Assembly (NCBI GenBank): GCA_044224725.1
Contig: JBGAJW010000021.1
Span: 6,644 to 70,643 of the forward strand
Direction: 5' to 3'
Source: Flavobacteriales bacterium
GTDB taxonomy: Bacteria; Bacteroidota; Bacteroidia; Flavobacteriales_F; PHOS-HE28
Length of the DNA: 64,000 nt
This document shows, piece by piece, positions 20,490 through 62,195 of this stretch. The translations under genes and the position numbers were made by a program. Below the pieces are notes generated by a model. It saw only the letters and a program-made list of their open reading frames with translations. It did not search any database and was not told where the DNA came from. The number at the start of each line of letters is the position of its first letter. The first letter of the stretch is position 1.

Positions 20490-23138
20490 ATGGAACACAT
20501 GAGAAACCGCTTCATCCTCCCTGCTTTCCTCGCGCTTTGCTCCACCGCGAATGCCCAAGGTCCCCGTTCGGGCCCGGGACTCGTTCCGCAGCGCATCGCA
20601 TCATTGCACCAGGTTGGAGCCACCTTCGCACCGGTGGCTCTTTTCACACCCGCGCATGCCAGTGCCGAGCGGGATGCGCGGTGGCATGAGGCATTGGACC
20701 AAGCGGTCGTTCTTTCACCTTCGACAGAAGCGATCTCGAGTGTGCTGGGCGACCACCCGGGTACCCTGCGGCTGGACCTGCCCACGACCGATGGGACGCT
20801 CTCATTGGAACTCGAACGTGCCGACCCCTTCACGGATGATTTTTCCGTAGTCGTGGCGAGCACCGGTGAGGCCTTCGCCTACGACCAAGGCGTCCATTAC
20901 CGGGGGGTGGTCGCGGGTGATCCGAATTCGCTCGTATCCATCAGCATTTTCAAGGACGAGGTGATGGGCTTCATCAGCCAGTCGGATGGTGATCTCACCA
21001 TCGGCAGGCTCGATGGAGATATGGAAGGCACGCACATCCTGTACCGCACCAGTGACATGCATGAGTCTCCCACCAATGTATGCGGAACGGCGGATGATGG
21101 GCACGGCTATACCGCGGAAGACCTCACACCGACGGGGGACAACCGGACCGTGAAATGCGTTCGGCTGTATTGGGAAGTGAATTACGACATCTTCCAAGGC
21201 AAGGGCAGCGTTACGGCCGCCACCAACTATGTGACCGGCCTCTTCAACCAGAGCTCCACGCTATACAACAATGACGGGATCAGTGTCACTCTTTCGCAGG
21301 TGTACGTATGGGACGTTGCGAGCCCCTACACATCCACCAGCACCAGCACCTTGCTCGACCAGTTCGGAACGTACCGGACCAGCTTCAACGGTGACCTGGC
21401 CAATCTGCTGGGTTACGCGGGCGGTGGTGGTATCGCTTGGCTGAATGGGCTGTGCAACAGCCAAGCCCGCTACAAAATGGGCTACAGCGGCATCAGCAGC
21501 AGTTATCAGACCGTACCGACGTACAGTTGGAGCGTGGAGGTGGTGACCCACGAGCAGGGACATCTCATGGGATCGAGGCACACGCACGCCTGCGCGTGGA
21601 ACGGCAACAACACGGCGATCGATGGCTGTGGGCCAACGGCGGGCTACACGGAAGGCACCTGCGCGACCGGTCCATTGCCGACCGGAACCGGCGGTACGAT
21701 CATGAGCTACTGCCATCTGGTGAGCGGCGTCGGCATCAACTTCAACAACGGCTTCGGTGCGCAGCCCACAACCCTCATTGTCAACAACATCAACAACGCT
21801 TCGTGCCTTACGGCCTGTTCAAGTGGCGGCACCTGCGGGGTTCCCGGTGGACTCAGTGCGGGAAGTCTCACGACTTCGAGTGCCGCGCTCCTGTGGAGTG
21901 CGGTGAGCGGCGCCGCGAGCTATACCCTGCAATGGAAGCCGACCAGCGCCAGCACATGGACCACCCTGACCGGTCTGCCTTCAGCAGGCTACAACCTGTC
22001 CGGGCTGACGGCGAACACGGCCTATCAGTTCCAAGTCCTTGCGGTGTGCAGTGGTGGTTCTTCCGCATACTCCGCAACCACGGGTTTCACCACGATCGGC
22101 ACGAGCGGTTGCCCGGATATCCAGGAGCCGAACGGCACCACGGGAACCGCAGGTACGATCAACAGCGGAACCACCTACAACGCGGTCATCTCGTCGGCCA
22201 CGGACGCTGACTACTACAAGCTCGTGATCGGTTCCACATCCACCATCACCATCGCTCTCAGCAATCTGCCCTCCGACTACGACCTGCGGTTGCTCAACAG
22301 CAGTGGCACCGTGCTCGCCACTTCTTCCGCAGGCAACACGACCGCAGAGAGCATCATGTACAACAACGCGTCGGCGGGCAACTACTATGTGCATGTGTAC
22401 GGGTACAATGGTGTGTTCAGCACAAGTGCGTGCTATGCGCTCACGGCCACGGCCACCGTGGTGTCGAGCTGCACTGACAACTACGAACCGAACGAAACGA
22501 ACGGCGGCGCACGTACCATCGGAGCGAACAGTGCCAAGACCGCGCGCATCGGCTCCTCTACCGACGTCGATTGGTTCAAGTTCGCCAACAGCAGTGCACA
22601 GCGCTACATCAAGGTATCGCTCACGAACCTCCCGGCCAACTACGATATGCAGCTCTGGCGCGGTAGCGGACAGCTGGCCACTTCAGCGAACAGCGGCACC
22701 ACCAACGAGCAGATCATCTACAACAGCAACACCATCAGTAGCAACTACAAGGTGAAGGTGTATGGCGTTTCAGGTGCGTTCAATGCCAGCGCCTGCTACA
22801 CGATCACCGCCCAGATCTCCGGCACGGCCTTCATGCCTTCAGGCGAGATGGAAGGGGGAGAGACCTTCGTCGAGGAGACTTCCACGGACGGCACCGTAGC
22901 GGTGTTCCCGAACCCCGCGCGTGAAACGGTGAACGTGATCATCCCCGCTGGGAGCCTCGGTGCCACCGTCGACCTGATGGACGCTACCGGCCGCATCGCA
23001 ATGAGCTTCACTTCACAAGCCTTGAACGCCGAGCAACGCATTGTGATGGACGTCCGGGACCTGTCAGCGGGAATCTGGTTCCTGCGTATCACGCAGGATG
23101 GCGTACCGACAGTGAAGCCGGTGATGATCGAACGCTGA
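20490..23138 (+). CDS. Secreted reprolysin-like (M12B-type) zinc metalloprotease with FN3, PPC-type domains and T9SS CTD
   Basis: Signal peptide. HEQGHLMGSRHTH (HExxHxxGxxH). FN3 segment LLWSAVSGAASYTLQWKP...YQFQVLAVC. Repeated EPN(G/E)T...DxDYYK/DVDWFKF pre-peptidase C-terminal-like modules. Tail VAVFPNPARETVNVIIP...GIWFLRITQDG. Confidence 0.85.
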   Translation: MEHMRNRFILPAFLALCSTANAQGPRSGPGLVPQRIASLHQVGATFAPVALFTPAHASAERDARWHEALDQAVVLSPSTEAISSVLGDHPGTLRLDLPTTDGTLSLELERADPFTDDFSVVVASTGEAFAYDQGVHYRGVVAGDPNSLVSISIFKDEVMGFISQSDGDLTIGRLDGDMEGTHILYRTSDMHESPTNVCGTADDGHGYTAEDLTPTGDNRTVKCVRLYWEVNYDIFQGKGSVTAATNYVTGLFNQSSTLYNNDGISVTLSQVYVWDVASPYTSTSTSTLLDQFGTYRTSFNGDLANLLGYAGGGGIAWLNGLCNSQARYKMGYSGISSSYQTVPTYSWSVEVVTHEQGHLMGSRHTHACAWNGNNTAIDGCGPTAGYTEGTCATGPLPTGTGGTIMSYCHLVSGVGINFNNGFGAQPTTLIVNNINNASCLTACSSGGTCGVPGGLSAGSLTTSSAALLWSAVSGAASYTLQWKPTSASTWTTLTGLPSAGYNLSGLTANTAYQFQVLAVCSGGSSAYSATTGFTTIGTSGCPDIQEPNGTTGTAGTINSGTTYNAVISSATDADYYKLVIGSTSTITIALSNLPSDYDLRLLNSSGTVLATSSAGNTTAESIMYNNASAGNYYVHVYGYNGVFSTSACYALTATATVVSSCTDNYEPNETNGGARTIGANSAKTARIGSSTDVDWFKFANSSAQRYIKVSLTNLPANYDMQLWRGSGQLATSANSGTTNEQIIYNSNTISSNYKVKVYGVSGAFNASACYTITAQISGTAFMPSGEMEGGETFVEETSTDGTVAVFPNPARETVNVIIPAGSLGATVDLMDATGRIAMSFTSQALNAEQRIVMDVRDLSAGIWFLRITQDGVPTVKPVMIER

Positions 23139-42758: not shown

Positions 42759-42887
42759 GGGCAAGGTGGTTTTGCGGACAGTGGGCGCTGGTACGTGGAA
42801 GGGGGGCGATCCGTTTCGTCCGGGCCTTTCCACTGTCGGGCCGCTGAACCTTCGGAACGATCTTTGGTCCCACCGCGCGTTACCTCC

Positions 42888-44306
42888 ATGGCTTCCACCC
42901 CGACCCGTCTCGCACACCACCTCTTTTGGCGGGCAGGCATGGGCCTTACGCCGAAGGAACTCGAAGCGCTCTCGGAAAGACCGTACGAGGAACTGGTCGA
43001 TGGGCTTTTTCGGGCATCCAGGGAATTCACACCGATCCGGACGACGCATGTAACCACCAGTGATGACGGTTACAGTGCGATGAAGGGCGTTGAGCAATTC
43101 AAGTACCGCAAGGCCAGCCGCGAAGCCCAGCGTCGGCTGAACGCGTTATGGCGTCAGCGGCTCATCACCACCGAAGGGTGCTTGCGGGAGAAGATGGCCC
43201 TCTTCTGGCACGGGCACTTCGTGGCGTGGAGCCATTGGTCCAACAGCACCGAACAGTACCTGAACGTGCTGCGCGAACACGCCTTGGGTGACCTGGGTAC
43301 CCTGCTCAAGAAGGTAAGCCGGTCCTCGGCCATGCTTGGCTACCTGAGCAACCAGCGCAACCGGAAGGACGCGCCCAACGAGAATTTCGCCCGCGAGTTG
43401 ATGGAGCTCTTCACCCTCGGTCGGGGGCATTATTCCGAGCAGGACATCCATGAAGCGGCCCGGGCCTTCACCGGCTGGGGCTTCAAGCTGGATACCGCCG
43501 AGTTCCATTTCCGGGAGAATCAGCACGACTTCGGCGAGAAGACCTTCCGCGGCAAGACCGGCAATTTTGATGGCGATGACATCCTGGACCTTCTGCTCGC
43601 TGACAAACAGACGGCCGTCTTCATCACCCGCAAGATGTACCGCTGGTTCGTGTGTCCCGAGATCCCCGGAGCCTCATCCGGGGTGGAGGAGGCATTCGCC
43701 GCACGCATGGCCGATCGCTTCTTCACCAGCGGATATGACATCGCCGATCTGATGCGCTTCGTCTTTTCCAGCGAGCACTTCAAGGACGCGGCTGTGCATG
43801 GTCGCCGCATCAAGTCGCCGATCGAGCTCATCTGTGGGCTGGACAAGAATTTCAAGCTCCGTTTCGAACGCGAGGAGGACGGCATGTTCCTGCAGCGGCT
43901 CTTGGGCCAAACGCTCCTGAATCCGCCCAACGTGGCCGGCTGGAAGGAAGGGAACGCTTGGATCGACAGCAATTCCTTGATGTTGCGGCTGAAGCTCCCG
44001 TCCGCGCTGTTGAACAAGGGCAACTTGGAGTGGGATGAGCCCGGAGCCAGTGCCGGGGATCTGGACAAGATGATGGCTCCGGCCGGCGATGCGCCGATGC
44101 GCGATGCGGACGGACGCCTGTTCCGCGTAGCACCGGACAAGGCGGCTTTCCTGGCACAGCTCGACCCGGCGGTGACGAACGATGCGCTCTTCACCAAGCT
44201 GCTCCAGGTGGACGCCAGCGAGCCCTTGCGCGCCAACGTGGGCAACGGCGACCTCATGGAACGTGTGCTGGAGATCCTGTCTTCACCCGAATATCAACTC
44301 TGCTGA
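42888..44306 (+). CDS. DUF1800 domain protein
   Basis: Start MASTPTRLAHHLFWRAGMG (ATG 42888). MALFWHGHF...NENFARELMELFTLG.GHYSEQDI.EAARAFTGW is the characteristic DUF1800 core. Confidence 0.85.
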   Translation: MASTPTRLAHHLFWRAGMGLTPKELEALSERPYEELVDGLFRASREFTPIRTTHVTTSDDGYSAMKGVEQFKYRKASREAQRRLNALWRQRLITTEGCLREKMALFWHGHFVAWSHWSNSTEQYLNVLREHALGDLGTLLKKVSRSSAMLGYLSNQRNRKDAPNENFARELMELFTLGRGHYSEQDIHEAARAFTGWGFKLDTAEFHFRENQHDFGEKTFRGKTGNFDGDDILDLLLADKQTAVFITRKMYRWFVCPEIPGASSGVEEAFAARMADRFFTSGYDIADLMRFVFSSEHFKDAAVHGRRIKSPIELICGLDKNFKLRFEREEDGMFLQRLLGQTLLNPPNVAGWKEGNAWIDSNSLMLRLKLPSALLNKGNLEWDEPGASAGDLDKMMAPAGDAPMRDADGRLFRVAPDKAAFLAQLDPAVTNDALFTKLLQVDASEPLRANVGNGDLMERVLEILSSPEYQLC

Positions 44307-50171: not shown

Positions 50172-50205
50172 ACAGGGGCGGCATCATGCCGCCCCTGTGC
50201 TTTTA
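50172..50205 (+). terminator. Rho-independent terminator after rny
   Basis: ACAGGGGCGGC (50172-50182), loop ATCAT, GCCGCCCCTGT (50188-50198), then GCTTTTA. Confidence 0.65.
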
Positions 50206-50211
50206 CGGCAC

Positions 50212-50219
50212 TACATTTC
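50212..50219 (+). promoter_or_regulatory. TAnnTTTG-like -7 box (TACATTTC) immediately upstream of dltC
   Basis: One mismatch to the consensus. Ends 5 nt before ATG 50225, which would imply a leaderless or near-leaderless transcript. Confidence 0.2.
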
Positions 50220-50224
50220 ACCCG

Positions 50225-50464
50225 ATGACCGACACCGAGATCAAGGACCTCATCAAGCAGGAGATCGCCAATGTGGCCTTTGCTACCGTGGACGATCAGG
50301 ATGCACTGCTGGAACAGAACATCTTGGACAGTGTGGGCGCGGTGGACCTTGCCGTGGCCTTGGAAGGCGTCTTCGGGATCAGCATCCCCTTCGTGGACAT
50401 CAACAAGCAGCAGTTCCACAGCGTGGAGACGCTTGCGGCTTACGTCCGCCTGAAGAAGGCATGA
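50225..50464 (+). CDS. dltC: D-alanyl carrier protein-like acyl carrier protein
   Basis: Start MTDTEIKDLIKQEIANV (ATG 50225). Phosphopantetheine-attachment context NILDSVGAVDLAVALE. 79 aa. Confidence 0.8.
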   Translation: MTDTEIKDLIKQEIANVAFATVDDQDALLEQNILDSVGAVDLAVALEGVFGISIPFVDINKQQFHSVETLAAYVRLKKA

Positions 50465-51657
50465 ACGCCCCGGCCCATAGCGGCTGGGTGAACCACGGGC
50501 TGGCGGTCACGCTCGCCATGGCAGGTGCATGGTGGATCGATTCGCGCGTGGAGGTCTACGATGCCGGGCTGGTCCGGGTACCCGAACGGAAGAGCATCGA
50601 ATACCCCCTGCACGGGTACATCGATAACTACCAGCATGAACCCTACCTCGCCGCCGCGCTGGGCAAGACCTTGACCGATGGGTCGAGCATCGTGCTCATG
50701 GGGTCTTCGGAACTCACCACGGCCGATCATCCGGCCAAGCCGGTGAACTTCTTCAACAACGAGCTGCATGTTCCGCTGTTGGCTCTTGGCCACGCGGGCA
50801 ATCAGAGCTTCAGCATGCATGCGCAGCTTATCGCGGCCGGTGCCGATCTGGCCGATGCGCGGCTCGCGATCCTCGTGTCGCCCAGCTGGTTCGTGGACAA
50901 GTCCGGTCTGACCGGCACGGAGCTCGCGGCCTTCCTGGAGTATCAGCCTTCACCCTCGCTTTACCGCATCCAGCAGCGCATCGAAGCCGGAGATCCGGTA
51001 ACCGCCCCGGTCGGCAGCTTCATGGCGGAACATGAGCATGAATTGGGATCGGCCCAGCCCATCGTGCAATGGATCACGCGGGATGCTTCCCCCATGGGCA
51101 GGTACCTCTATGGCTTCAGTCAACCGTGGAACGCGGCGATCATACACCACACCCGGCCGCAAATGCTCGCGGAAACGCCCCTTCGTGCTTGGAGCCCCGG
51201 ACCGCGCGCCGCACTATCCCCGGCGGAATGGGGGCCGCTTTTCGAAAAGGGTGTGGCTGAACACCTGGCCCAATGCACCAACAACAAGGTCTTCGTCTAC
51301 GACGCTTACTACTCCGAGCACGTCAATGGTCGCACCCGCATGCTCGATGTATGGCCTGTCGAGGAGAATCGCGAGATGCATGATTTCATCGCCTTATTGG
51401 ACTTCTTGCAGAACGTTCATGCGAAACCCTATTTCGTCCTGCAACCGCTGAACCCATACGTGTACACGAACCTCGCGGACGTGGACCCGACGATCGACCG
51501 CATACGGAAAGAATTGGATGTGCGCGACTTCAGCTACCTGGATCTTTGGGTGAACGATACTGCGGAGTTCCGACCGGGCACGCTAACGGACGTCATGCAC
51601 CTCGGTCCTTTGGGCTGGTACCGGATCGACAGTGCCATGGCCACCTACTTCCCATGA
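50461..51657 (+). CDS. dltD: DltD-like membrane-anchored acyl-transfer protein
   Basis: ATGA overlap with dltC. N-terminal anchor LAVTLAMAGAWWI. IVLMGSSELT (GSSE active-site-like motif). ...TDVMHLGPLGWYRID near the C-terminus. Confidence 0.78.
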   Translation: MNAPAHSGWVNHGLAVTLAMAGAWWIDSRVEVYDAGLVRVPERKSIEYPLHGYIDNYQHEPYLAAALGKTLTDGSSIVLMGSSELTTADHPAKPVNFFNNELHVPLLALGHAGNQSFSMHAQLIAAGADLADARLAILVSPSWFVDKSGLTGTELAAFLEYQPSPSLYRIQQRIEAGDPVTAPVGSFMAEHEHELGSAQPIVQWITRDASPMGRYLYGFSQPWNAAIIHHTRPQMLAETPLRAWSPGPRAALSPAEWGPLFEKGVAEHLAQCTNNKVFVYDAYYSEHVNGRTRMLDVWPVEENREMHDFIALLDFLQNVHAKPYFVLQPLNPYVYTNLADVDPTIDRIRKELDVRDFSYLDLWVNDTAEFRPGTLTDVMHLGPLGWYRIDSAMATYFP

Positions 51658-51803
51658 GAACGGACACCCGCTTTTTCCGCATCGCCAAGTGGACCGTGAT
51701 CTACGTCGCGCTCGCGTTGGGTATGCTCTGGCTGCACGACCCGCGGGTGGTGGGCATGGACGCCGCCGCCAGCACCGTCAAGTTCGTTTACCAGCAGTTC
51801 TGA
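51654..51803 (+). CDS. dltX: DltX-like 49-aa membrane peptide
   Basis: ATGA overlap with dltD. MRTDTRFFRIAKWTVIYVALALGMLWLHDPRVVGMDAAASTVKFVYQQF has one TM segment and a C-terminal FVYQQF resembling the Firmicute DltX FIYNEF end motif. Confidence 0.6.
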   Translation: MRTDTRFFRIAKWTVIYVALALGMLWLHDPRVVGMDAAASTVKFVYQQF

Positions 51804-51938
51804 GGAATGGGACCACAGGGACACAGGGGCACAGAGGACGCAGAGGGGGATCCGTTGCTCGCTGCCCATGTTGTTGCCATCCCCGTGCATGCTATGTCTT
51901 TGTACCACTGTGGTATGCATCCCTGCATCCGCTGATCC

Positions 51939-53078
51939 ATGCTGCCCTTCGCGAATATCGATTTCTATCTGCTGTTCGCGCTGCTCGTGGCCTTGCTCTA
52001 CGCGCTGAAAGGCCTGTTGAGCGGCCGCGTGCCGCTGGTGTCCGTCCTCGTCGGCATCAGCTTGTTCTATGCCGTGGCCTATTTCCCGAAGCCGTGGCAA
52101 CTGTTGCTGTTCACGGTGTACCAATGCGTGTTCACGTGGTTGCTGCTGTTCCGGTGGAAGCGGGCGAACAAACTGCTCGGCAGCCTCCTGCTCGCATTGC
52201 CCATGGTGCTGGTGAAGCTCGACTGGAATGTGGACATCATCGGTTTTGCGGGCATCAGCTACATCACCTTCCGCTGCGTCCAGGTCTACCTCGATGGGGA
52301 CCTGCTCCGCGACAAATTCCGCTTCGCGGACTTCATCGCTTTCCTGCTCTTCACGCCCAGCTTGCTCGCGGGGCCCATCGACCGGTACGAGCGGTTCAAG
52401 AGCGATCTGGACCAGGGCTGGTCGCGGTTGAACGCCTCCGCCTTGCTCGCCGGTTGGGAGCTCATCGCCTTGGGCCTGTTGCACAAGTTCGTGCTGGGGG
52501 AGCTTGTGGACCGCCATTGGCTTTCAGAATGCGACGGTTGTACGGATGCTTGGCCCATGATGAAGGACATGTACGGCTACACCGCCTACCTGTATTTCGA
52601 TTTCGCCGGGTACTCCTTGCTCGCCATCGGTCTCGGGCGCATGATGGGCATCGAACTGCCGAAGAACTTCGATCGTCCTTGGTTGACCGAGAACCCTCCT
52701 GAGTTCTGGAAGCGCTGGCATATCAGCCTCGGCGATTGGCTGCGCGATTACTTCTTCCGACCCATCTACAAGAGCCTGAGCGGTGTGCAGCGCTTGCGGA
52801 CCTGGCCCCTGTTGAAGCAGAACATCGCGCTCTTCAGCACCTTTCTGCTCATGGGTTGCTGGAACGGGCTGGAAGCGCATTACATCGCGAGTGGCGCCCT
52901 TTTCGGCCTGTACAGCGTGGGCTACAACAGCTACCAGCACCAGAGCCGCAAGCACAAGTGGAACTTCTGGGGCAGCACGCCCGCTTGGCTCGTGAAAGGA
53001 CTCTCCATCTTCGTGATGGTGCATTTGGCTTGCTTCGCCTTGTACATCTTCAGCGGACGGTTCCCATACTTGCACTGA
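51939..53078 (+). CDS. dltB: MBOAT family acyltransferase DltB
   Basis: 379 aa, polytopic. GISYITFR, AGPIDRYERF, DFAGYS, FWKRWHISLGDWLRDYFF (conserved MBOAT His). Confidence 0.88.
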   Translation: MLPFANIDFYLLFALLVALLYALKGLLSGRVPLVSVLVGISLFYAVAYFPKPWQLLLFTVYQCVFTWLLLFRWKRANKLLGSLLLALPMVLVKLDWNVDIIGFAGISYITFRCVQVYLDGDLLRDKFRFADFIAFLLFTPSLLAGPIDRYERFKSDLDQGWSRLNASALLAGWELIALGLLHKFVLGELVDRHWLSECDGCTDAWPMMKDMYGYTAYLYFDFAGYSLLAIGLGRMMGIELPKNFDRPWLTENPPEFWKRWHISLGDWLRDYFFRPIYKSLSGVQRLRTWPLLKQNIALFSTFLLMGCWNGLEAHYIASGALFGLYSVGYNSYQHQSRKHKWNFWGSTPAWLVKGLSIFVMVHLACFALYIFSGRFPYLH

Positions 53079-54589
53079 TGCGATTCGACATCGTTGGCGC
53101 GCGTTTCGAGGATGCGGATACCGCACCGGACAAACTGGCCGTGGCCGGGAGTGACCGCGACCTGTCCTGGGCAGCACTGCGCGAAGAGGTGCTGGCGCTG
53201 ACCGAACGCATCATCAAGGTGGGGTTGCCGAAAGGCCATCCCGTGATCGTCCGCGGACACAAGGAGGCGGACATGGTCGTGAGCATGATGGCTTGCATGC
53301 TGCTGGATCACCCTTACATCCCGCTGGACCTGGTGGTGCCGGAAGAACGGGTGCGCAGGATCCTCTCCATCACCGGTGCGCAGTTGGTGCTCGACTGCTC
53401 GGAACAACCGTTCACCAGCGACGTGTCGTTGATCGCACCGGGTGGGAAGGACCTGATCGTCAAGGCGGATCCGGCCAAGGGCATCCCGTACCGCGCGCAT
53501 GATCCGATCCGCTACATCATTTTCACCAGTGGAAGCACGGGCGAGCCCAAAGGCGTGCGCATCACGCGCGAAGCCGCCGGTGCCTTCCTCCGTTGGATGA
53601 GCGCGGACTTCGGTTTCACTGCCACCGATGTCTTCATCAACCAAGCGCCGTTCAGCTTCGACCTGAGCGTGTATGAACTGTTCACCAGTTCGCACATCGG
53701 TGGTACGTTGCTGCTGAACGATGCTGAGACAGCCAAGGACTCGAAGCGCTTTCTCGATCGCGTTGCACGTTACCGGGGAAGCGTGTGGGTGAGCACCCCC
53801 ACCTTCGCCTACCTCTATCTCACCGAGCCCGCTTTCACCGGAGAGCACGTGCCGTCGGTGCATTCGTTCCTGTTCTGCGGCGAAGCCCTGCCGAAGATGA
53901 CCGCCCAACGCCTGCTCGACCGTTTCCCCTCTTCGCGTGTGCTGAACACTTATGGTCCCACGGAGGCCACAGTGGCCACTTCGCTGGTCGATGTGACGCG
54001 CGAGGCGCTCGCGAAATACCCGGACATGCCGGTAGGTTACCCGAAGCGTGAATGCACACTGCGTTGCACAACGCCCGACGGTGCCGACGCCACGAAGGAA
54101 GCACCCGGAGAGATCGAGATCATTGGACCGCACGTGAGCATCGGCTACCTGAACAACGACGAACTGAATGCTGAGAAGTTCTTCGAGGTGGATGGCCAGC
54201 GAGCGTTCCGCACGGGCGACTATGGCTGGTTCCAGGACGGCATCCTTTTCTTCAATGGCCGCCGCGATGAGCAGGTGAAGTTGAACGGCTTCCGCATCGA
54301 GCTCGGGGACATCACCGCACAAATGCTCGTAGTGCCGGGCGTGGCCGACGCCATCGCTGTGCCTTTGAAAGCCGGGGAGACGGTGAAACGCATCATCGGC
54401 TTTGTACGGCCCGGGCCGGGAGCGGATATGGCAATGCTGCGCCCCATGATCGAGGCGCGTCTTCGCAAGGAGCTTCCCGCGTACATGGTCCCTGCGGATA
54501 TCTCCTTCGTTAGCGCTTTCCCTGTGAACAGCAGTCACAAGACGGACAGAAAGGCGTTGATAGAAGGCTACATGAACCGCAAGCGCTGA
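53078..54589 (+). CDS. dltA: D-alanine--carrier protein ligase-like adenylating enzyme DltA
   Basis: The ATG shares one nt with the dltB stop (TGATG). IIFTSGSTGEPKGV, NTYGPTEATV, FRTGDYG, GRRDEQVKLNGFRIELGDI. About 503 aa, the stand-alone A-domain size typical of DltA. Confidence 0.88.
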   Translation: MRFDIVGARFEDADTAPDKLAVAGSDRDLSWAALREEVLALTERIIKVGLPKGHPVIVRGHKEADMVVSMMACMLLDHPYIPLDLVVPEERVRRILSITGAQLVLDCSEQPFTSDVSLIAPGGKDLIVKADPAKGIPYRAHDPIRYIIFTSGSTGEPKGVRITREAAGAFLRWMSADFGFTATDVFINQAPFSFDLSVYELFTSSHIGGTLLLNDAETAKDSKRFLDRVARYRGSVWVSTPTFAYLYLTEPAFTGEHVPSVHSFLFCGEALPKMTAQRLLDRFPSSRVLNTYGPTEATVATSLVDVTREALAKYPDMPVGYPKRECTLRCTTPDGADATKEAPGEIEIIGPHVSIGYLNNDELNAEKFFEVDGQRAFRTGDYGWFQDGILFFNGRRDEQVKLNGFRIELGDITAQMLVVPGVADAIAVPLKAGETVKRIIGFVRPGPGADMAMLRPMIEARLRKELPAYMVPADISFVSAFPVNSSHKTDRKALIEGYMNRKR

Positions 54590-54606: not shown

Positions 54607-55578
54607 ATGTCCAAGGGCACCATCCTCGTTACCGGTGGCGCGGGCTTCATCGGCTCGCATGTGTGTGATGCGCTCATCAGGGATGGCTTCGCGGTGCGTT
54701 GCTTCGACAATCTGGCCACGGGGAAGCGCGGCAACATTTCACATCTCGAAGCGGGGCCGAACTTCTCCTTCGTTGAAGGCGACCTGCGTTCGCAGGATGA
54801 TCTGAGGACGGCGGTCGTCGGCGCTTCCGCCATCGTCCATCTCGGTGCCTTGGGCAGCGTGCCGCGCAGCATCGCCGATCCCCTTCCAAGCGAAGCGGCC
54901 AACCTCACCGGTTTCTTGAACCTCCTGGAGGCTGCGCGCCACGCGGGGGTGAAGCGCATCGTTTACGCCAGCAGCAGCAGTGTCTATGGGGATAGCGCGG
55001 AACTTCCCAAGCGTGAAGGCACCGAAGGCCGTCCGCTCTCGCCGTACGCGGTGACCAAGGCGATGGACGAGGCGTACGCGAACCTCTATCATCACATGCA
55101 CGGGATGGAACTCATCGGCCTGCGCTTTTTCAATGTGTTCGGTGAGCGGCAGGATCCTGAAGGTCCCTACGCTGCGGCGATACCCAAGTTCATCCGCGCC
55201 TTGCTGAAGCATGAGCCGCCCGTCGTCAACGGCGATGGAGGACAGACCCGCGATTTCACCTACGTGGGCAACGCCGTGCATGCGGTGCAGTGCGGACTCT
55301 GCGCAGGTGGCGGAGCTGTGGGCGAAGTGTTCAACATCGCGTTCGGCGACCGTTGCGATCTGCTCTCGCTCGTCGGGCGCTTGCGAACGCACCTCGCCCG
55401 CATCGATCCGGCCATTGCTCACGTGGGAGTGCGGCACGCGCCCGACCGTCCCGGCGATGTGCGCGACTCGTTGGCGGATGTGGGCAAAGCGAGGAAATTG
55501 CTCGGCTACTCCCCGGCCTACGATCTCGAAGCCGGCCTCGAACGGGCCGTGCCCTGGTACGCCGAACACTGGCGTTAA
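54607..55578 (+). CDS. NAD-dependent nucleotide-sugar epimerase/dehydratase (extended SDR)
   Basis: VTGGAGFIGSH. Catalytic SPYAVTKAMDE (YxxxK). FNVFGERQDP and GDGGQTRDFTYV. Resembles UDP-GlcNAc/UDP-Glc 4-epimerase-type enzymes. Confidence 0.88.
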   Translation: MSKGTILVTGGAGFIGSHVCDALIRDGFAVRCFDNLATGKRGNISHLEAGPNFSFVEGDLRSQDDLRTAVVGASAIVHLGALGSVPRSIADPLPSEAANLTGFLNLLEAARHAGVKRIVYASSSSVYGDSAELPKREGTEGRPLSPYAVTKAMDEAYANLYHHMHGMELIGLRFFNVFGERQDPEGPYAAAIPKFIRALLKHEPPVVNGDGGQTRDFTYVGNAVHAVQCGLCAGGGAVGEVFNIAFGDRCDLLSLVGRLRTHLARIDPAIAHVGVRHAPDRPGDVRDSLADVGKARKLLGYSPAYDLEAGLERAVPWYAEHWR

Positions 55579-55606: not shown

Positions 55607-56401
55607 TCACCGTCGCACCGCGAGGAAGTTCGTCGTGCGGAACTGCTCTTGCGTTTCGTAGTAATGCTCCATCTTGAACAGGTAGCCGGACGGTGTGATG
55701 CGGTAGAGGTCCATGCCCAGCGGCTCGAAGAAGTACCAGAAATCGCGGAAGTAGGTGTGCGTATCGATGTTGGCACCGCCGAACTCCAAGGTCACCAGGC
55801 CGATGGCCTTCTTGGCGAACATGCCCTTCGCGCCCTTGAAGCAATCGAGTTCGTGGCCTTCGATGTCCACCTTCAGCAGGTCGATACGGTCGATGCCCTT
55901 GGCCGCGCAGTAGTTGTCCACGGTGTCGATCAGCACGGTCTCGCTCCCTTCGTTGCTCATCCCGAAGTGGTCCAGTTTGCGCTTGGTGAGGCTGGCGAGT
56001 TCACTACCGGCATGGTCGTAGTGCAGCACGGCTTCGCTCTGTTCGGCACCGAGGCCGATGTTGTTCAGGTGGACCTTCGGTTTTCCCGCAGCGGTCTTCA
56101 CCAAGTGCTCGAAGGTCTGTTTGCCCGGTTCGAAGCAGTGCACTTCGACATCCTGCCCTTGCATGTGATCGAGCGCCATGCTGAGGAACTGCCCCCGGTT
56201 GCTGCCCACATCGAAAATGCGGTACGGCCCTTTCGTGAACTTCTTCAGCCGGTCCAGGATCACCGTTTCACCACTGGCGGAAACCCCTGCTCCCGATCCG
56301 ATGCCCATTAGCTCCTGTGACACCTGCACGTTCTTCTGAAGGACGCGCTGGGCGAAACGACTGGCAGTGAGATTGGCGAGGACCCTCTTCAATACGGACA
56401 T
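55607..56401 (-). CDS. FkbM family methyltransferase
   Basis: 264 aa. IFDVGSNRGQF, VHCFEP and LLKVDIEGHE motifs. Confidence 0.85.
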   Translation of the reverse strand: MSVLKRVLANLTASRFAQRVLQKNVQVSQELMGIGSGAGVSASGETVILDRLKKFTKGPYRIFDVGSNRGQFLSMALDHMQGQDVEVHCFEPGKQTFEHLVKTAAGKPKVHLNNIGLGAEQSEAVLHYDHAGSELASLTKRKLDHFGMSNEGSETVLIDTVDNYCAAKGIDRIDLLKVDIEGHELDCFKGAKGMFAKKAIGLVTLEFGGANIDTHTYFRDFWYFFEPLGMDLYRITPSGYLFKMEHYYETQEQFRTTNFLAVRR

Positions 56402-56621: not shown

Positions 56622-58280
56622 ATGCGCTCAATACTCCTCTTTCTCGCCGCTGCGGCGTTCTCGCTTTCGAGCGCCCAATCTCCCCCGACCATCGCCAACA
56701 AGGAGATGGACGCCTTGTTGGCTGAGCACTTCGAAGGGGCGAACGCACCGGGCGCCTGCATCCTGGTGTCCAAGGCAGGTCAGGTGATCTATCGGCGCGC
56801 CACGGGCGCGTCCGACCTTGCACAGCCCCTTGCTACCGACGCGATATTCCGTATCGGAAGCATCACCAAACAATTCACGGCGATGGCCATCCTGCAGCTG
56901 GTTCAGGAAGGCAAATTGAACCTGACCGATGAATTGCAGGGGCATATGGACTTCCCCAAGAAGGCTTGGCCCATCACCATCGAGCAGTTGCTCACGCACA
57001 CGGCGGGTATCCCCAACTACACCGATCTGCCCTCCTTCACACCGGAGAATTACGGCAAGGACGTTGGCCTCGCGGAGGTGATCGCGACCTTCAAGGACCT
57101 TCCGCTGGAGTTTGAACCGGGTACGAAGTGGAGCTACAGCAACAGCGGGTACGTCCTGCTCGGTGCCCTCGTGGAACGTATATCCGGAATGAGCTGGGAG
57201 ATGTACATGGGCGAGCAATTCTTCGGTCCGCTCGGCATGGCCCGCAGCAGCGCGAGCTCGGCGAACGGGCAACTGCCTGGCGAGGCGCTCGGCTACCAGA
57301 AAGGGGAGAAGGGCTGGGAACGGGCCGCTCCGCTCAGCATGACATGGCCGCATGGCGCAGGCGCGATCCGGAGCACGGTCGACGATCTCTTCGCGTGGAA
57401 TACGGCCGTGATGACCAGCAAGCTCGTACCGGCTGAACTACTGGCGAAGGCGCACACTGACCACAAATTGAACGACGGCAGTGCAACGCACTATGGCTAC
57501 GGTTGGAATTTCCAGAACGTCCAAGGCAGCCCGACGATCGAGCACAACGGCGGTATCAATGGGTTCACCAGTGCTAGCCTGTACGTGCCGAAAGAGGACA
57601 TCTACGTTGCCGTGCTCTGCAATGCGGAGACGAACGCGGCCGAGGCGCTCGCACCGCAACTCGCTGCCATTGCGATGGGCAAGCCCTACGCAGGGGCCAC
57701 CACCATGGATGTGCCAATGGAAGAGCTGAAGGGTTTCCAAGGCGTTTACCTCAGCCCGGACAGCGTGAAGCGCTACATCACGGCGGATGAACAGGGCCTG
57801 CACGCACAACGCGAGGGCTCGACCAAACGTGACCTGGTCTGCTTCGCGCCGGACAGTTTCATGTACAAGGGGGATGTCACCACGCTCACCTTCCGCCGAC
57901 AGGATGGCAAGGTCACCGGTGCCCGTCTATTGTCGCGCAGCCAGGACGAGCCGCTCGTTCTGACAGCCCTCCCATTGCCCGTGCGGACCGAGGTGAAGCT
58001 CGACGCCAAGGTCCTGAAGAAGTACGCCGGGGAGTTCGAGCTCAAACCCGGCTTTTCGATCACCTTCCGCGCGGACGGCGACAAGCTCTTCGGCAAGGCG
58101 ACGGGCCAGCCCGAGTTCGAGCTCTTCGCTGAAGGTCCGAACAAGTTCTTCTTGAAGGTGGTGGACGCCCGTATCGAATTCTACCCGGAAGCGAACGGCT
58201 CCGTGAAGCGCATGAAGCTCTTCCAGGGCGGGGAAATGGAAGGGAAGCGCATCAAGAGGCCGAAGGGCTCCAAGCCCTGA
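56622..58280 (+). CDS. Serine hydrolase, beta-lactamase/PBP4*-like family, with C-terminal domain
   Basis: Start MRSILLFLAAAAFSLSSAQ (ATG 56622). SITK (SxxK), YSNSGY, HGAG. Confidence 0.85.
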   Translation: MRSILLFLAAAAFSLSSAQSPPTIANKEMDALLAEHFEGANAPGACILVSKAGQVIYRRATGASDLAQPLATDAIFRIGSITKQFTAMAILQLVQEGKLNLTDELQGHMDFPKKAWPITIEQLLTHTAGIPNYTDLPSFTPENYGKDVGLAEVIATFKDLPLEFEPGTKWSYSNSGYVLLGALVERISGMSWEMYMGEQFFGPLGMARSSASSANGQLPGEALGYQKGEKGWERAAPLSMTWPHGAGAIRSTVDDLFAWNTAVMTSKLVPAELLAKAHTDHKLNDGSATHYGYGWNFQNVQGSPTIEHNGGINGFTSASLYVPKEDIYVAVLCNAETNAAEALAPQLAAIAMGKPYAGATTMDVPMEELKGFQGVYLSPDSVKRYITADEQGLHAQREGSTKRDLVCFAPDSFMYKGDVTTLTFRRQDGKVTGARLLSRSQDEPLVLTALPLPVRTEVKLDAKVLKKYAGEFELKPGFSITFRADGDKLFGKATGQPEFELFAEGPNKFFLKVVDARIEFYPEANGSVKRMKLFQGGEMEGKRIKRPKGSKP

Positions 58281-59154
58281 TGGTGCGATCATCGCTGGCG
58301 CTGACCAAGGTCCCGTCCGCGCACCAGTGCACCGCGTTCACGCTATGGGTGTGGCCGCCTTGCTTCAGCTCCAAGCGTTCCGCCGGTTCGAAGCTTGCCG
58401 CGTCCCACAGTTTCACGGATTTGTCACGACTGGCGGTGGCGCAGAGCTTCGCGTCCGGGCTGAAGGCGATGCCGTAGATGTTCGCCCTGTGTGCCGGTAT
58501 CGCGCGCAGTGGCTTGAAGTCCGCATCGGTCCGCCAGAAGCGAAGGTGACCATCCCGGCCCCCGCTGATGAGCGCGGGCTTGGACGGGTGCCAGCAGACA
58601 CTGGCCGCCCCACGCTCATGGGCCTCGATCGTGTGCCGCGTGTTGAGGTCGGTTGTTTCCAGCACATGCACGCGGCCATCGAGGGAAGCGACAGCGAGCA
58701 GCGATCCATCGGCGTTCACCGCCAGGCCGCGCACTTTCTCCTCGCTCAACGGTACCTGTCGTTCCAACTCCATGGTGGGCACTTTCCAAACGCTGATGCT
58801 CCCATCGCCGCCCGAGCACACGATGCGGTCCTTTCCCAGCGGAAGGATGCGGAAGATCCCGAGCCGATGCGCGTGGAGGTGACGCAGCTCTTCACCTTCG
58901 CTCAGGTCCACCACGTGCAGCCCGCCTTCGCTGTTGCCGATGAAGAGCAACTTGCGGTCACGGTCGTTATGGATCGTGTAGATCGGCTTCAGCGCATCCG
59001 CTACCTGTTCGCCATGATCGGGCATGCGCATGTCCCATCTTACCACCTTCCCGTCGCCACTGGCACTGAGAAAGAGGTTGGGGTTGGCGGTGCCTTGAAC
59101 GCTGTATACCGCGCCCCGATGCCCCGTGAATGTCGCCGTTCTGTGCCAGGCCAT
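58252..59154 (-). CDS. WD40 repeat protein
   Basis: 300 aa. GHRGAVYSV...SASGDGKVVRWD, ...GGRDGHLRFW, ...SRDKSVKLWD, ...ASDDRTIRAW. 29-bp convergent overlap with the hydrolase gene. Confidence 0.85.
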   Translation of the reverse strand: MAWHRTATFTGHRGAVYSVQGTANPNLFLSASGDGKVVRWDMRMPDHGEQVADALKPIYTIHNDRDRKLLFIGNSEGGLHVVDLSEGEELRHLHAHRLGIFRILPLGKDRIVCSGGDGSISVWKVPTMELERQVPLSEEKVRGLAVNADGSLLAVASLDGRVHVLETTDLNTRHTIEAHERGAASVCWHPSKPALISGGRDGHLRFWRTDADFKPLRAIPAHRANIYGIAFSPDAKLCATASRDKSVKLWDAASFEPAERLELKQGGHTHSVNAVHWCADGTLVSASDDRTIRAWSPSAS

Positions 59155-59936: not shown

Positions 59937-62195
59937 CTAATCAGCCTGAACCGCCTTCCGGCTGCCGAACGTCAGTCGTGCACCGAAGAAAAAGCTGCGA
60001 CCGGGAGCAGGGTTGTAGTAACGGCCGTTGGGGTCGTTCACCGTTATCCAGCTCGAGTAGCGGGCGTCCAACACGTTCTCGCAATGGAGGAAGATGGAGA
60101 TGTCGGCGGTCTTTCCACCGAACAGATAGGACAGGCGGGCGTGCTCCACATGCTTGTCCTCCGTTGCCACGCCTCCTGTAGGGGTGCGACCGATCAATCG
60201 GGCCCCGGTCTCGATACTGAGGCGTTTCAGGCCCAGGCCGCTCGCTCGTGCGACAAGCCCTGCCGTGATCACCGGTATGCCCGGGATATCGCCCAAGCTC
60301 GCATCGCCCGCGATCCGGTCAGTCCGTAGGTCCGTGTCCATGATCGCAACGGAAGCCAGAAGGTCTACCCGTTGCGTACCTGATCGATACACCGGGCCAT
60401 GCACCAACAATTCACAGCCCGCGATGAGCGCTCGGTCCTGATTGCCGTAATAGGTGACTCCAGCGCTGTCCTGGTTCTGCATGATGAGGTCAGCGACCGA
60501 TCTGTGGAAGACGGTGAAGTCGGCGCGCACGGGAGTTCCGGCAAATTCGTTGGAGGCACCGAACTCCCATTCGCGAACGCGCTCGCCCTGCAAGGAGTTG
60601 TTGAATACGCCGGAGGTTCCCAGCAATTCCCATACGGTGGCGCGGCTCACGTTTTCGGCGTAGCGCAAATGGAGCTTGTAGCCGCCGTGAAGGGTCTGCT
60701 CCAATCCAGCGTACGGAAGAAGCTTGGGAGTGGTGGTGCGCTTGCTCAACCTGCCGACCACATGGTCGTTGTGGTCATAGTCCGTGCGTTCCATGCCCAC
60801 GCCGGCATGCAGGATGGTGCTCCGCCCGATCCGTGTAACCGTGGTGGCGAAGGCGTTCAAGTTGGCTACACGGGTGTCCCCGTTCACCTTGATCTCGCCC
60901 AGCACCTTGTCCACGTAGCCCAGTTCGCGTAGATGATCGCGTTCCGCCAGCACTTCCAAGCCCATGTCCCACGCTGTTGGCAGGTTGAACAACTCATCCC
61001 CGCACATGGACAGTCGCGCCCCGACCGCGCGGATCGTTTCCTCCTTGAACCCGCAATTGCCAGCGCTTGTGCCGTACGGGTTCGTCTTGTCGATCCGCTG
61101 TGCATGCACCCCGCTGCGCACGGTAAGGTGCTCGCCCAGGCGCAGTTCGTTGGCCAGGCCGCCCATGATCTGCTCTTTCGCCAAGTGCGCGTTCAAGAGG
61201 ATGGAGTAGGGGCGGGCCGCCTGCGGATCCTGTTCCGCTGTGGTGAGATCCACGCTGCCCGGAAGGTCCCATGCCGCTTTCTGCCAAGTGAGGAACACAC
61301 GAGAGACACTCTTCCTGAAGGCGAAAGCCGTGGCGATGAACGCTTGGTCGCGCGCGCTGGATTCCTGCTCCCGATAGCCCGCATTGCGTTGATGGATGAG
61401 CCCGGCAGTGAAGGTCGTGCCCGCGTTGTTCGTGCGGGCCATTGCGCCGAGACGGTAGTAGCCGTAGGAACCGCCGATGGCTTCAATGGAAGCATCCGAG
61501 CCGGATGCGGACCGGAACGGCGCTGCGCCGATCAACAAGCCGCTGGGGGCAGTGCCATACATCGGGCTGCCTACACTGCGGGTGATATCGACGGATCCCA
61601 GCAGCAACGGATCAAGCAGTTCCAGCGGGGTGCTGCCGTCCGCCAGCGTTAGTGGGAAGGGTCCCCAGTAGACTTTCACGCCTCGGACGCCGTAGGGCGA
61701 ACGGAGCAAGCTGCCCCGAATGCTCAGTCGCGCGCTGCCTCCATGCCCACGTTCATCCCATTGTACCCCGGGCACCCATTGTACAGCGCTGCGCAGGGAA
61801 CCGCGTTCGAAACCAGCGATCAATGCGCTGTCCACCGTGGCGGTCGCCGCCAAGGCTTGGCGGTCGCGTTTGCGGGGCCAGTGTTCGATCACCACTTCCT
61901 TCAAGGGTGTGCTCACCACTGATTCCAGTGGTATGAAGCCCCGTGCCTCGGCGACCACCGTGCTTGCCACTGTCGGCTGGAAGCCCGGCATTTCAATACG
62001 GATCGAATCACAGGGCAATGGCACGCATACCTTTCCATCAGCATCGGTGTACCAAATGCCATCCCCGTTCGTACACCAGATGGAACAGCCTTCCACACCT
62101 TTCTGACCCGCGTCCTCCACCACCCGGAAACAGGACTGGCCGCTACCCGCAAAGGCAGCGGCCAGCGCCATAAGCGCGACAAGGGGGCGCTTCAT
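59937..62195 (-). CDS. TonB-dependent outer-membrane receptor
   Basis: Signal peptide MKRPLVALMALAAAFAGSGQ. Plug-like region (RLSIRGSLLRSPYGVRGVKVYW). Long beta-barrel ending ...GRSFFFGARLTF. Confidence 0.82.
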   Translation of the reverse strand: MKRPLVALMALAAAFAGSGQSCFRVVEDAGQKGVEGCSIWCTNGDGIWYTDADGKVCVPLPCDSIRIEMPGFQPTVASTVVAEARGFIPLESVVSTPLKEVVIEHWPRKRDRQALAATATVDSALIAGFERGSLRSAVQWVPGVQWDERGHGGSARLSIRGSLLRSPYGVRGVKVYWGPFPLTLADGSTPLELLDPLLLGSVDITRSVGSPMYGTAPSGLLIGAAPFRSASGSDASIEAIGGSYGYYRLGAMARTNNAGTTFTAGLIHQRNAGYREQESSARDQAFIATAFAFRKSVSRVFLTWQKAAWDLPGSVDLTTAEQDPQAARPYSILLNAHLAKEQIMGGLANELRLGEHLTVRSGVHAQRIDKTNPYGTSAGNCGFKEETIRAVGARLSMCGDELFNLPTAWDMGLEVLAERDHLRELGYVDKVLGEIKVNGDTRVANLNAFATTVTRIGRSTILHAGVGMERTDYDHNDHVVGRLSKRTTTPKLLPYAGLEQTLHGGYKLHLRYAENVSRATVWELLGTSGVFNNSLQGERVREWEFGASNEFAGTPVRADFTVFHRSVADLIMQNQDSAGVTYYGNQDRALIAGCELLVHGPVYRSGTQRVDLLASVAIMDTDLRTDRIAGDASLGDIPGIPVITAGLVARASGLGLKRLSIETGARLIGRTPTGGVATEDKHVEHARLSYLFGGKTADISIFLHCENVLDARYSSWITVNDPNGRYYNPAPGRSFFFGARLTFGSRKAVQAD

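Follow-up and report, generated by a model that had tools for sequence, protein, structure and literature searches.

A 64,000-nucleotide stretch of contig JBGAJW010000021.1 from a Flavobacteriales bacterium (hereafter the window) contains a five-gene Dlt-like cassette on its plus strand (50225-54589), which encodes a carrier protein, a DltD-like transferase, a DltX-like microprotein, a DltB-like MBOAT and a DltA-like ligase, in the order C-D-X-B-A. All five components and their catalytic motifs are present, the gene order is kept, and the substrate pocket of the ligase resembles that of D-alanine-activating DltA proteins. Predicted models moreover suggest that the folds of the MBOAT and the DltD-like protein are conserved. 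We consider it reasonably probable that the cassette represents a functional, carrier-dependent pathway of the Dlt type by which an amino acid is conveyed across the inner membrane. Judged by sequence comparison, the system is real and probably functional, and each of its parts is homologous to a known one. The most unusual trait of the cassette, absent from the initial annotation of this stretch, is a histidine-to-asparagine replacement in the active site of the MBOAT.

The first gene (50225-50464, +) codes for a DltC-like aminoacyl carrier protein of 79 residues with a phosphopantetheine site at Ser36, embedded in the motif ILDS36-V-G-A-V-D-L. It is followed by the DltD-like SGNH-type transferase (50461-51657, +; 398 residues), which carries the G81-S-S-E-L motif and combines an N-terminal membrane helix with a periplasmic catalytic domain, and by the DltX-like membrane microprotein (51654-51803, +; 49 residues) that terminates in F44-V-Y46-Q-Q-F49. 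A lineage-specific spacer of 135 bp, to which no strand is assigned (51804-51938) and which the initial annotation had not mentioned, separates the latter from the DltB-like MBOAT (51939-53078, +; 379 residues), which carries WHISLGDWLRDYFF and is devoid of a fused C-terminal shuttle motif. The last gene (53078-54589, +) encodes the DltA-like stand-alone amino-acid adenylase or carrier-protein ligase of 503 residues, with SGSTGEPKG, YGPTE, FRTGDYG and GRRDEQVKLNGFRIELGDI. Re-reading of the open reading frames (ORFs) bears out the initial annotation with respect to the five consecutive plus-strand genes, their C-D-X-B-A order, which is also kept across the cassette family, and the translational overlaps, with ATGA joining the carrier to the DltD-like gene and the latter to the microprotein gene, and TGATG joining the MBOAT and the ligase. 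All five genes, including that of 49 residues, have also been called by independent gene callers on public contigs with identical proteins. The GC content of the cassette is about 0.60 and equal to that of the rest of the window, arguing that the cassette is not a recent import.

To place the cassette among its relatives, one genome per GTDB species was scanned with an alignment of DltD-like proteins, and the regions of ±10 kb around each match were compared. This recovered 64 loci, all of them in metagenome-assembled genomes (MAGs) of Bacteroidota, spanning Flavobacteriales, Fluviicola, Vicingaceae, Bacteroidales, Lentimicrobiaceae and Sphingobacteriaceae, and originating from activated sludge, lakes, groundwater, permafrost and marine samples. 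Wherever the contig is long enough, the C-D-X-B-A order is found, in about 60 species and at pairwise identities of 25-90%, a recurrence that excludes a chance arrangement. Clustering of all ORFs of the 64 loci detected no neighbour that is conserved beyond the cassette itself, except in a close Flavobacteriales subgroup, where an RNase Y gene is located upstream and a TviC-like epimerase gene downstream. Since the flanking genes vary while the coupled order persists over such divergence, the comparison indicates that selection acts on the cassette as one self-contained unit. As had been proposed, the cell belongs to the diderm Bacteroidota: the window encodes both a TonB-dependent receptor (59937-62195) and a metalloprotease (20490-23138) with a C-terminal sorting domain of the type IX secretion system, and the closest homologues of DltD, DltA and DltB are found in MAGs of uncultured Flavobacteriales and other Bacteroidota.

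The ligase matches the Pfam AMP-binding family at 197.7 bits. Among the NCBIfam models, those for DltA score highest (NF003417, 446.3; TIGR01734, 430.8), followed by amino-acid adenylation (TIGR01733, 303), while acyl-CoA ligase models reach at most 120 bits. The best matches in the PDB are the DltA proteins of B. cereus (364 bits) and B. subtilis (319 bits). The protein is therefore grouped with DltA and not with acyl-CoA ligases, in agreement with its original designation. Next, the ten specificity positions were mapped by alignment to four solved D-Ala DltA structures, with a numbering that we take to follow GrsA-PheA. The pocket of the window ligase, D-L-Y-V-L-C-T-V-A-K, agrees with the D-L-M-[TV]-[LMF]-C-T-V-A-K of the solved proteins at nine of the ten positions, M239Y being the sole difference, and the cysteine at the position equivalent to A301 of PheA (Cys301) is retained. 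This cysteine reportedly enforces the choice of the D-enantiomer, as described in the structural papers on B. cereus and B. subtilis DltA. Given the pocket agreement and the preserved cysteine, D-alanine is the likely cargo of the window cassette.

The pocket is not equally constant throughout the cassette family, as became evident when the DltA genes were compared in loci L016-L064 (for example L064:10061-11557 and L022:10307-11797). Asp235 and Lys517 of the adenylation-domain code are invariant across the loci. The window and about 27 loci share a type I code, D-L-[YF]-V-L-C-T-V-A-K. Around 20 loci instead display a type II code, D-V-C-T-L-[MI]-A-I-V-K, in which Met or Ile replaces the cysteine, and three show a type III code, D-V-Y-T-[VL]-A-A-[VI]-T-K, in addition to a few singleton codes. 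The type II codes may be unlike those for glycine; the top PDB match of one such ligase, P0147, is the module-2 region of LgrA, with a score that sums two domains. As the chassis is constant and the pocket varies, sister cassettes may load other amino acids. The initial annotation had treated the loaded amino acid as undecided; this applies less to the window, where the pocket is nearly that of a D-Ala DltA, and holds for the sister cassettes with their differing codes.

The carrier scores 29.4 bits against the Pfam PP-binding family (cut-off 20.8), has DltC models among its NCBIfam matches and aligns with DltC chains of the PDB at E values of about 1e-3. Its motif, [IL]LDS[IVM]xx[VI][DE]L, is maintained in most loci, with Ser36 being invariant. 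In DltC, S35-M36 and V39-E40 form the surface that contacts DltB (PMC11035591), an arrangement that is mirrored by Ser36 within S-V-x-x-V-D of the window carrier. A modifiable serine is thus present, in the DltC-like context S-[IVM]-x-x-V-[DE]. The DltD-like protein, in turn, matches Pfam DltD (PF04914) with 139.5 bits at a cut-off of 22.7. Its candidate triad consists of Ser82 or Ser83 of GSSEL together with Asp377 and His380 of a DVMH motif; across 17 diverse homologues, none of S82, S83, D377 and H380 varies, and both GSSEL and the D..H pair align with Enterococcus DltD. The AlphaFold model (pLDDT, the predicted local distance difference test, of 88.6) places the N-terminal helix at approximately residues 7-29, and each of its best 12 matches in the PDB is a solved DltD, with E values between 1e-10 and 3e-8 and template modelling (TM) scores of 0.45-0.57. 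Solved DltDs are also the only structures for which significant E values were reached.

Searches of the 49-residue microprotein against Pfam and NCBIfam returned no match, and its assignment rests on motif, position and conservation. It is composed of a basic N-terminus, a single hydrophobic helix and the C-terminal FVYQQF, and every locus with both DltD and DltB has an ORF of 44-60 residues between them that ends in F[VI]YQQF, with FVYQNF, FVYQKF and FIYAQF as variants found once each. The function of DltX is defined by an invariant tyrosine in a C-terminal FXYXXF acyl-shuttle motif (PMC12148441). As FVYQQF fits this motif, we assign the microprotein by sequence as the DltX equivalent, congruent with the DltX-like label that it had been given. 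According to the same source, the DltX tyrosine takes D-alanine from DltC via DltB and hands it over to the catalytic serine of DltD (PMC12148441). By analogy, Tyr46 of the microprotein is predicted to be the acyl-carrying residue.

The MBOAT is recognized by Pfam MBOAT (59.9 bits), and its sole NCBIfam match is the DltB model TIGR04091, to which it aligns from end to end with 279 bits. It also aligns over its full length with the DltB structures 6BUG and 8JEM (150 bits), and the AlphaFold model (pLDDT 87.5) superimposes on solved DltB (8JEM/6BUG) with a TM score of 0.85, as compared to at most 0.73 for eukaryotic MBOATs. On this basis the protein belongs with DltB and not with AlgI/AlgJ, as originally assigned. 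Its C-terminus, FSGRFPYLH, is without the FXYXXF motif; more distant MBOAT representatives do carry terminal shuttle-like motifs, for example QFIYFQF. We also noted DltB-like MBOATs of about 600 residues (P0201, P0204 and P0211) with a C-terminal extension of some 220 residues, in which Pfam detected no domain.

Two active-site histidines have been described for DltB of S. thermophilus, of which His289 is termed 'conserved' and His336 'invariant' (PMC11035591); the latter corresponds to the residue to which reviews refer as the hallmark histidine of MBOATs (PMC10213974). In the window MBOAT, His261 (RWHISL) is the equivalent of His289, while the His336 position is occupied by Asn309 (GCWNG), and the hallmark histidine is hence missing. 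Neither His261 nor Asn309 varies among 40 database homologues or among 51 members of the family. We then performed an exhaustive HMMER search for MBOAT homologues among 1.84 billion representatives, in which the roughly 30 closest clusters have W-N-G and nearly all remaining clusters W-H-G. Neighbour joining places all 24 full-length Asn variants in a single clade that has no other members, whereas the other full-length representatives have His. The Asn clade spans at least 24 clusters at 50% identity. By these sequence comparisons, the His-to-Asn change arose once and has been maintained since, with all other catalytic residues of the pathway staying fixed. As a separate observation, P0201 has Asn at the His289-equivalent position as well and would consequently have neither active-site histidine.

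Several observations weigh against the reading of a functional Dlt-type pathway. The NCBIfam scores lie below the model cut-offs for the ligase (NF003417, 446.3 against 476; TIGR01734, 430.8 against 559.85), the carrier (DltC models, 30.9 against 68 and 22.3 against 52), the DltD-like protein (TIGR04092, 104 bits against 150) and the MBOAT (TIGR04091, 279 against 375). With every score short of its curated equivalog cut-off, the proteins are divergent relatives rather than orthologues by NCBI criteria. Asn is found at the His336 position in all 51 cassette MBOATs from the loci, in a strict G-x-W-N-G context; such a change in another MBOAT would ordinarily be taken to mean lost activity. In the type I group, Tyr or Phe replaces Met at pocket position 239, and the quite different codes of the sister cassettes leave the cargo short of proven. 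Moreover, there is no isolate genome among the 64 genome matches or the named protein matches, all being MAGs of uncultured organisms; a 4.96-Mb contig considered as a cultured host was discarded, the contig being metagenomic. No acceptor-synthesis gene is consistently linked to the cassette in the 64 loci, and no teichoic-acid synthesis gene is linked to it in either the window or these loci. To our knowledge, no teichoic acid is known from Bacteroidota. In a diderm host of this phylum the acceptor would therefore be one other than teichoic acid. Aggregated, the cassette is a Dlt pathway by function and architecture that departs from the textbook system in the cut-offs, the operon order, the hallmark histidine and, presumably, the teichoic acceptor.

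Among the alternatives, the one that survives best is that the same machinery places another cargo on the envelope, such as glycine, L-alanine, D-serine or beta-alanine. The aromatic residue at position 239, shared by the whole type I group as opposed to the Met of all four solved D-Ala DltAs, is compatible with such a shift, as are the scores below the DltA equivalog cut-offs and the presence of at least two further code types in the family, demonstrating that the pocket is not fixed. For the window, we nevertheless regard this as unlikely, since nine of the ten code positions, including Asp235, Cys301 and Lys517, match the solved D-Ala ligases. Furthermore, on the pocket segment DltA is matched far better (E value of 9e-35) than the V. 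cholerae chain 4OXI (4.7e-12), which we take to represent the glycine ligase AlmE.

Markedly less probable is that the loss of the MBOAT histidine has left the cassette catalytically crippled, and that it is either decaying or has been repurposed for a structural or regulatory role. The basis for this concern is that Asn replaces a family-defining hallmark residue in all members (PMC10213974, PMC11035591). The Asn is however itself invariant within G-x-W-N-G, and derives from a single origin, after which the clade split into 24 or more clusters at the 50% identity level. Over the same divergence, no other catalytic residue in any of the five proteins has changed, and about 60 species retain intact, coupled ORFs, the pattern that purifying selection leaves on a pathway in working order. 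In addition, the canonical MBOAT pair consists of Asn or Asp plus His, so that His/Asn represents a swap and not a loss (PMC11035591). The single origin and maintenance of the substitution, alongside fixed catalytic residues elsewhere in the pathway, argue that the enzyme is active through a re-wired His/Asn pair and is not a pseudo-enzyme. We infer that the His261/Asn309 pair effectively mirrors the Asn/His pair of eukaryotic MBOATs, with His261 as the likely general base.

Finally, it is highly improbable that the Dlt label conceals O-acetylation machinery of the AlgI/AlgJ or PatA/PatB type, or an acyltransferase paired with a generic acyl-CoA ligase: although MBOAT-SGNH pairs that acetylate peptidoglycan, alginate or cellulose are common in Gram-negatives (PMC12148441) and the distant homologue P0459 is named 'Peptidoglycan O-acetyltransferase' in UniRef, the carrier and adenylase are translationally coupled, the MBOAT matches only DltB in NCBIfam and folds closer to DltB than to other MBOATs, and the ligase favours amino-acid adenylation (303 bits) over acyl-CoA models (at most 120) while keeping the Asp that binds the alpha-amino group. 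With an MBOAT that is without a fused motif and a separate microprotein that carries it, the architecture is of the Dlt and not of the AlgI/PatA type, and both of these readings were rejected on architecture and scores and are effectively refuted.

Returning to the functional Dlt-type pathway, its first four steps can be proposed by homology to the established Dlt system (PMC12148441, PMC11035591). The ligase would adenylate a small amino acid, most probably D-alanine, and load it as a thioester onto the phosphopantetheine arm at Ser36 of the carrier. The charged carrier would then dock onto the cytoplasmic face of the DltB-like MBOAT, through the tunnel of which the aminoacyl group would be passed to Tyr46 of the DltX-like microprotein on the periplasmic side, with His261 as the probable base. 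Next, the catalytic serine of the membrane-anchored DltD-like protein, Ser82 or Ser83, would take over the group from Tyr46, and finally, the DltD-like protein would esterify a hydroxyl of some envelope component on the periplasmic side of the inner membrane. Our best guess for this acceptor is a lipid-anchored anionic glycoconjugate, such as lipopolysaccharide (LPS), an O-antigen or polysaccharide intermediate, or a glycolipid. The modification would render the surface less negative and chemically masked.

A broader scenario can be put forward more tentatively, in which periplasmic aminoacylation of a non-teichoic acceptor occurs across the Bacteroidota, with a cargo that varies by lineage and a re-wired His/Asn MBOAT that dispenses with the histidine regarded as essential to the superfamily. 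Candidate acceptors would in that case include an LPS or O-antigen intermediate, a glycolipid or an envelope protein, and the ligases of the family display at least three pocket codes.

An orphan pair of genes for a carrier and a DltD-like protein, with no DltX, DltB or DltA, was also observed in a Bacteroidales MAG (L069:9079-10552, the same region as L058) that in addition has a full cassette (L060). The pair is separated by one gene (AhpC) from an O-antigen-like cluster of Wzy, glycosyltransferase and Bac_transf genes. This proximity offers a weak hint at a glycoconjugate acceptor, and the second DltD might steer the modification to a second, polysaccharide acceptor. A further MAG, of low GC content and labelled Spirochaetia by NCBI, harbours the C-D-X-B-A order with a DltX ending in QFIYQQF and a W-N-G MBOAT (L072:5243-9506); here the MBOAT was called as a protein of 422 residues that overlaps the dltX region or is fused with it. 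Either the cassette is present outside Bacteroidota or this bin is mislabelled.

The closest counterpart of the cassette is dltXABCD of Firmicutes, as known from B. subtilis, S. aureus and S. thermophilus, with the mechanism attributed to Schultz, Snow & Walker 2023 as relayed in PMC12148441. For comparison we used the structures 6BUG, 8JEM, 3DHV, 3E7W, 3BMA and 6PFX. The two systems share the same five components, namely an adenylase, a carrier, an MBOAT without fused motif, an FXYXXF microprotein and an SGNH-like DltD, as well as nine of ten pocket positions and, as predicted, the DltB and DltD folds. The identity to the Firmicutes proteins is in contrast limited, at about 18% for DltD, 28% for DltB and 40% for DltA. 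The order is X-A-B-C-D in Firmicutes and C-D-X-B-A in the window and all related loci examined. Teichoic acid is the acceptor in the former, as opposed to a diderm Bacteroidota host with no known teichoic acid. Furthermore, His336 of Firmicutes DltB is Asn throughout the Bacteroidota clade, with the His289 equivalent kept in both, Met239 of DltA is Tyr or Phe, and the DltX motif takes the form F[VI]YQQF, with few minor variants.

Dlt-type genes have likewise been described in Proteobacterial diderms without teichoic acid, with a presumed role in surface charge, as dltBAC and dltD(pbpG) in Dickeya, Pectobacterium and Photorhabdus (PMC3544676, PMC5541007), and as the dra locus of Bordetella pertussis (Taneja et al. 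2013, as cited in PMC9410548). For Dickeya, LPS has been proposed as the acceptor (PMC3544676, PMC5541007). In Dickeya, a member of another phylum, dltBAC is found with dltD elsewhere, unlike the single C-D-X-B-A block of the present cassette. The Proteobacterial carriers of such loci are cultured pathogens with polymyxin or antimicrobial-peptide phenotypes, whereas the Bacteroidota cassette has been found only in environmental MAGs. The PatA/PatB, AlgI/AlgJ/AlgX and WssH-type systems share the pairing of MBOAT and SGNH proteins, the FXYXXF acyl-tyrosine shuttle, an extracytoplasmic polymer as acceptor and a Gram-negative envelope (PMC12148441). In acetyl-CoA-dependent MBOATs such as PatA and AlgI, FXYXXF is fused to the C-terminus of the enzyme itself on two extra helices, with neither carrier nor microprotein (PMC12148441). 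The PatA, AlgI and WssH-type enzymes thus employ acyl-CoA with no carrier or adenylase and a fused motif, while the window cassette is predicted to use a carrier-bound amino acid donor and a separate microprotein.

Vibrio cholerae AlmEFG provides a further comparison, as a DltA-like ligase and a DltC-like carrier there serve to aminoacylate lipid A with glycine. AlmG is a lipid A acyltransferase of the cytoplasmic face, and AlmEFG includes no MBOAT, DltX or DltD. What the two systems have in common is the use of a ligase and a carrier in a Gram-negative. On the pocket segment, 4OXI matches the window ligase much more weakly than the D-Ala DltAs do.

Upstream of the carrier gene, the end of the RNase Y unit and the likely cassette promoter are located at 50173-50219 (+), as judged by sequence. 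A GC-rich, terminator-like hairpin (50173-50197) follows RNase Y and precedes a T-run and TACATTTC (50212-50219), a sequence similar to the -7 element of Bacteroidota, TAnnTTTG, and positioned 5 nt ahead of the carrier ATG. Both the hairpin and CACTACATTTCACCCGATG are kept in loci L001 and L003, while L013 and L015 differ, with the carrier beginning 6-8 nt past the RNase Y stop. The alternative carrier start chosen by gene callers (ATG at 50186, giving 92 residues) falls in the hairpin loop, and the start yielding 79 residues is therefore favoured. A scan for sigma-70 promoters and terminators was uninformative, its consensus being unsuited to Bacteroidota. The gap between dltX and dltB, 135 bp in the window, measures only 6-7 bp in relatives. 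The spacer has no second copy in the window and is absent from the 64 related loci; it was hence dismissed as a repeat or mobile element, and a structured RNA was likewise rejected, as the predicted fold is no better than that of shuffled sequences (z = +1.18).

On the downstream side, a TviC/WbpP-like NAD-dependent sugar-nucleotide epimerase is encoded on the same strand (54607-55578), 18 nt past the DltA stop, and is followed by a convergent FkbM-family methyltransferase gene (55607-56401). The epimerase is found downstream in most close Flavobacteriales relatives and not in distant ones. Conserved neighbours were considered as a clue to the acceptor and set aside, the pattern in the subgroup resembling plain synteny. 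Elsewhere in the window we observed genes for a membrane protein similar to HTTM and vitamin-K-dependent gamma-carboxylase (15041-16426), a DUF1800 protein (42795-44306) and a bacterial WD40 beta-propeller protein (58252-59154).

The initial annotation had singled out the cassette as the best candidate in the window for an undescribed envelope-modification system. Full-text literature searches indeed recovered no paper on dlt in Bacteroidota or Flavobacteria, and in this respect the claim stands. It does not extend to the individual proteins, as automatic annotation at NCBI and JGI has already given certain homologues the names DltD, D-alanyl transfer protein or D-alanine--poly(phosphoribitol) ligase. 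The novelty is thereby bounded, with all components homologous to known ones, some already annotated automatically and all hosts uncultured. Within these bounds, the clade-wide His-to-Asn replacement constitutes a natural experiment on MBOAT acyl transfer, and the sequence data suggest that the second histidine, equivalent to His289, can carry the MBOAT chemistry alone. The several pocket types on one chassis hint at a variable, possibly programmable cargo, and the compact five-gene module provides a handle on what Dlt systems modify in Gram-negatives. If the cassette is active, carrier-dependent D-alanylation, a textbook Gram-positive trait and antibiotic target, would extend to an outer-membrane phylum, implying an ester modification of the envelope that has not yet been looked for in Bacteroidota.

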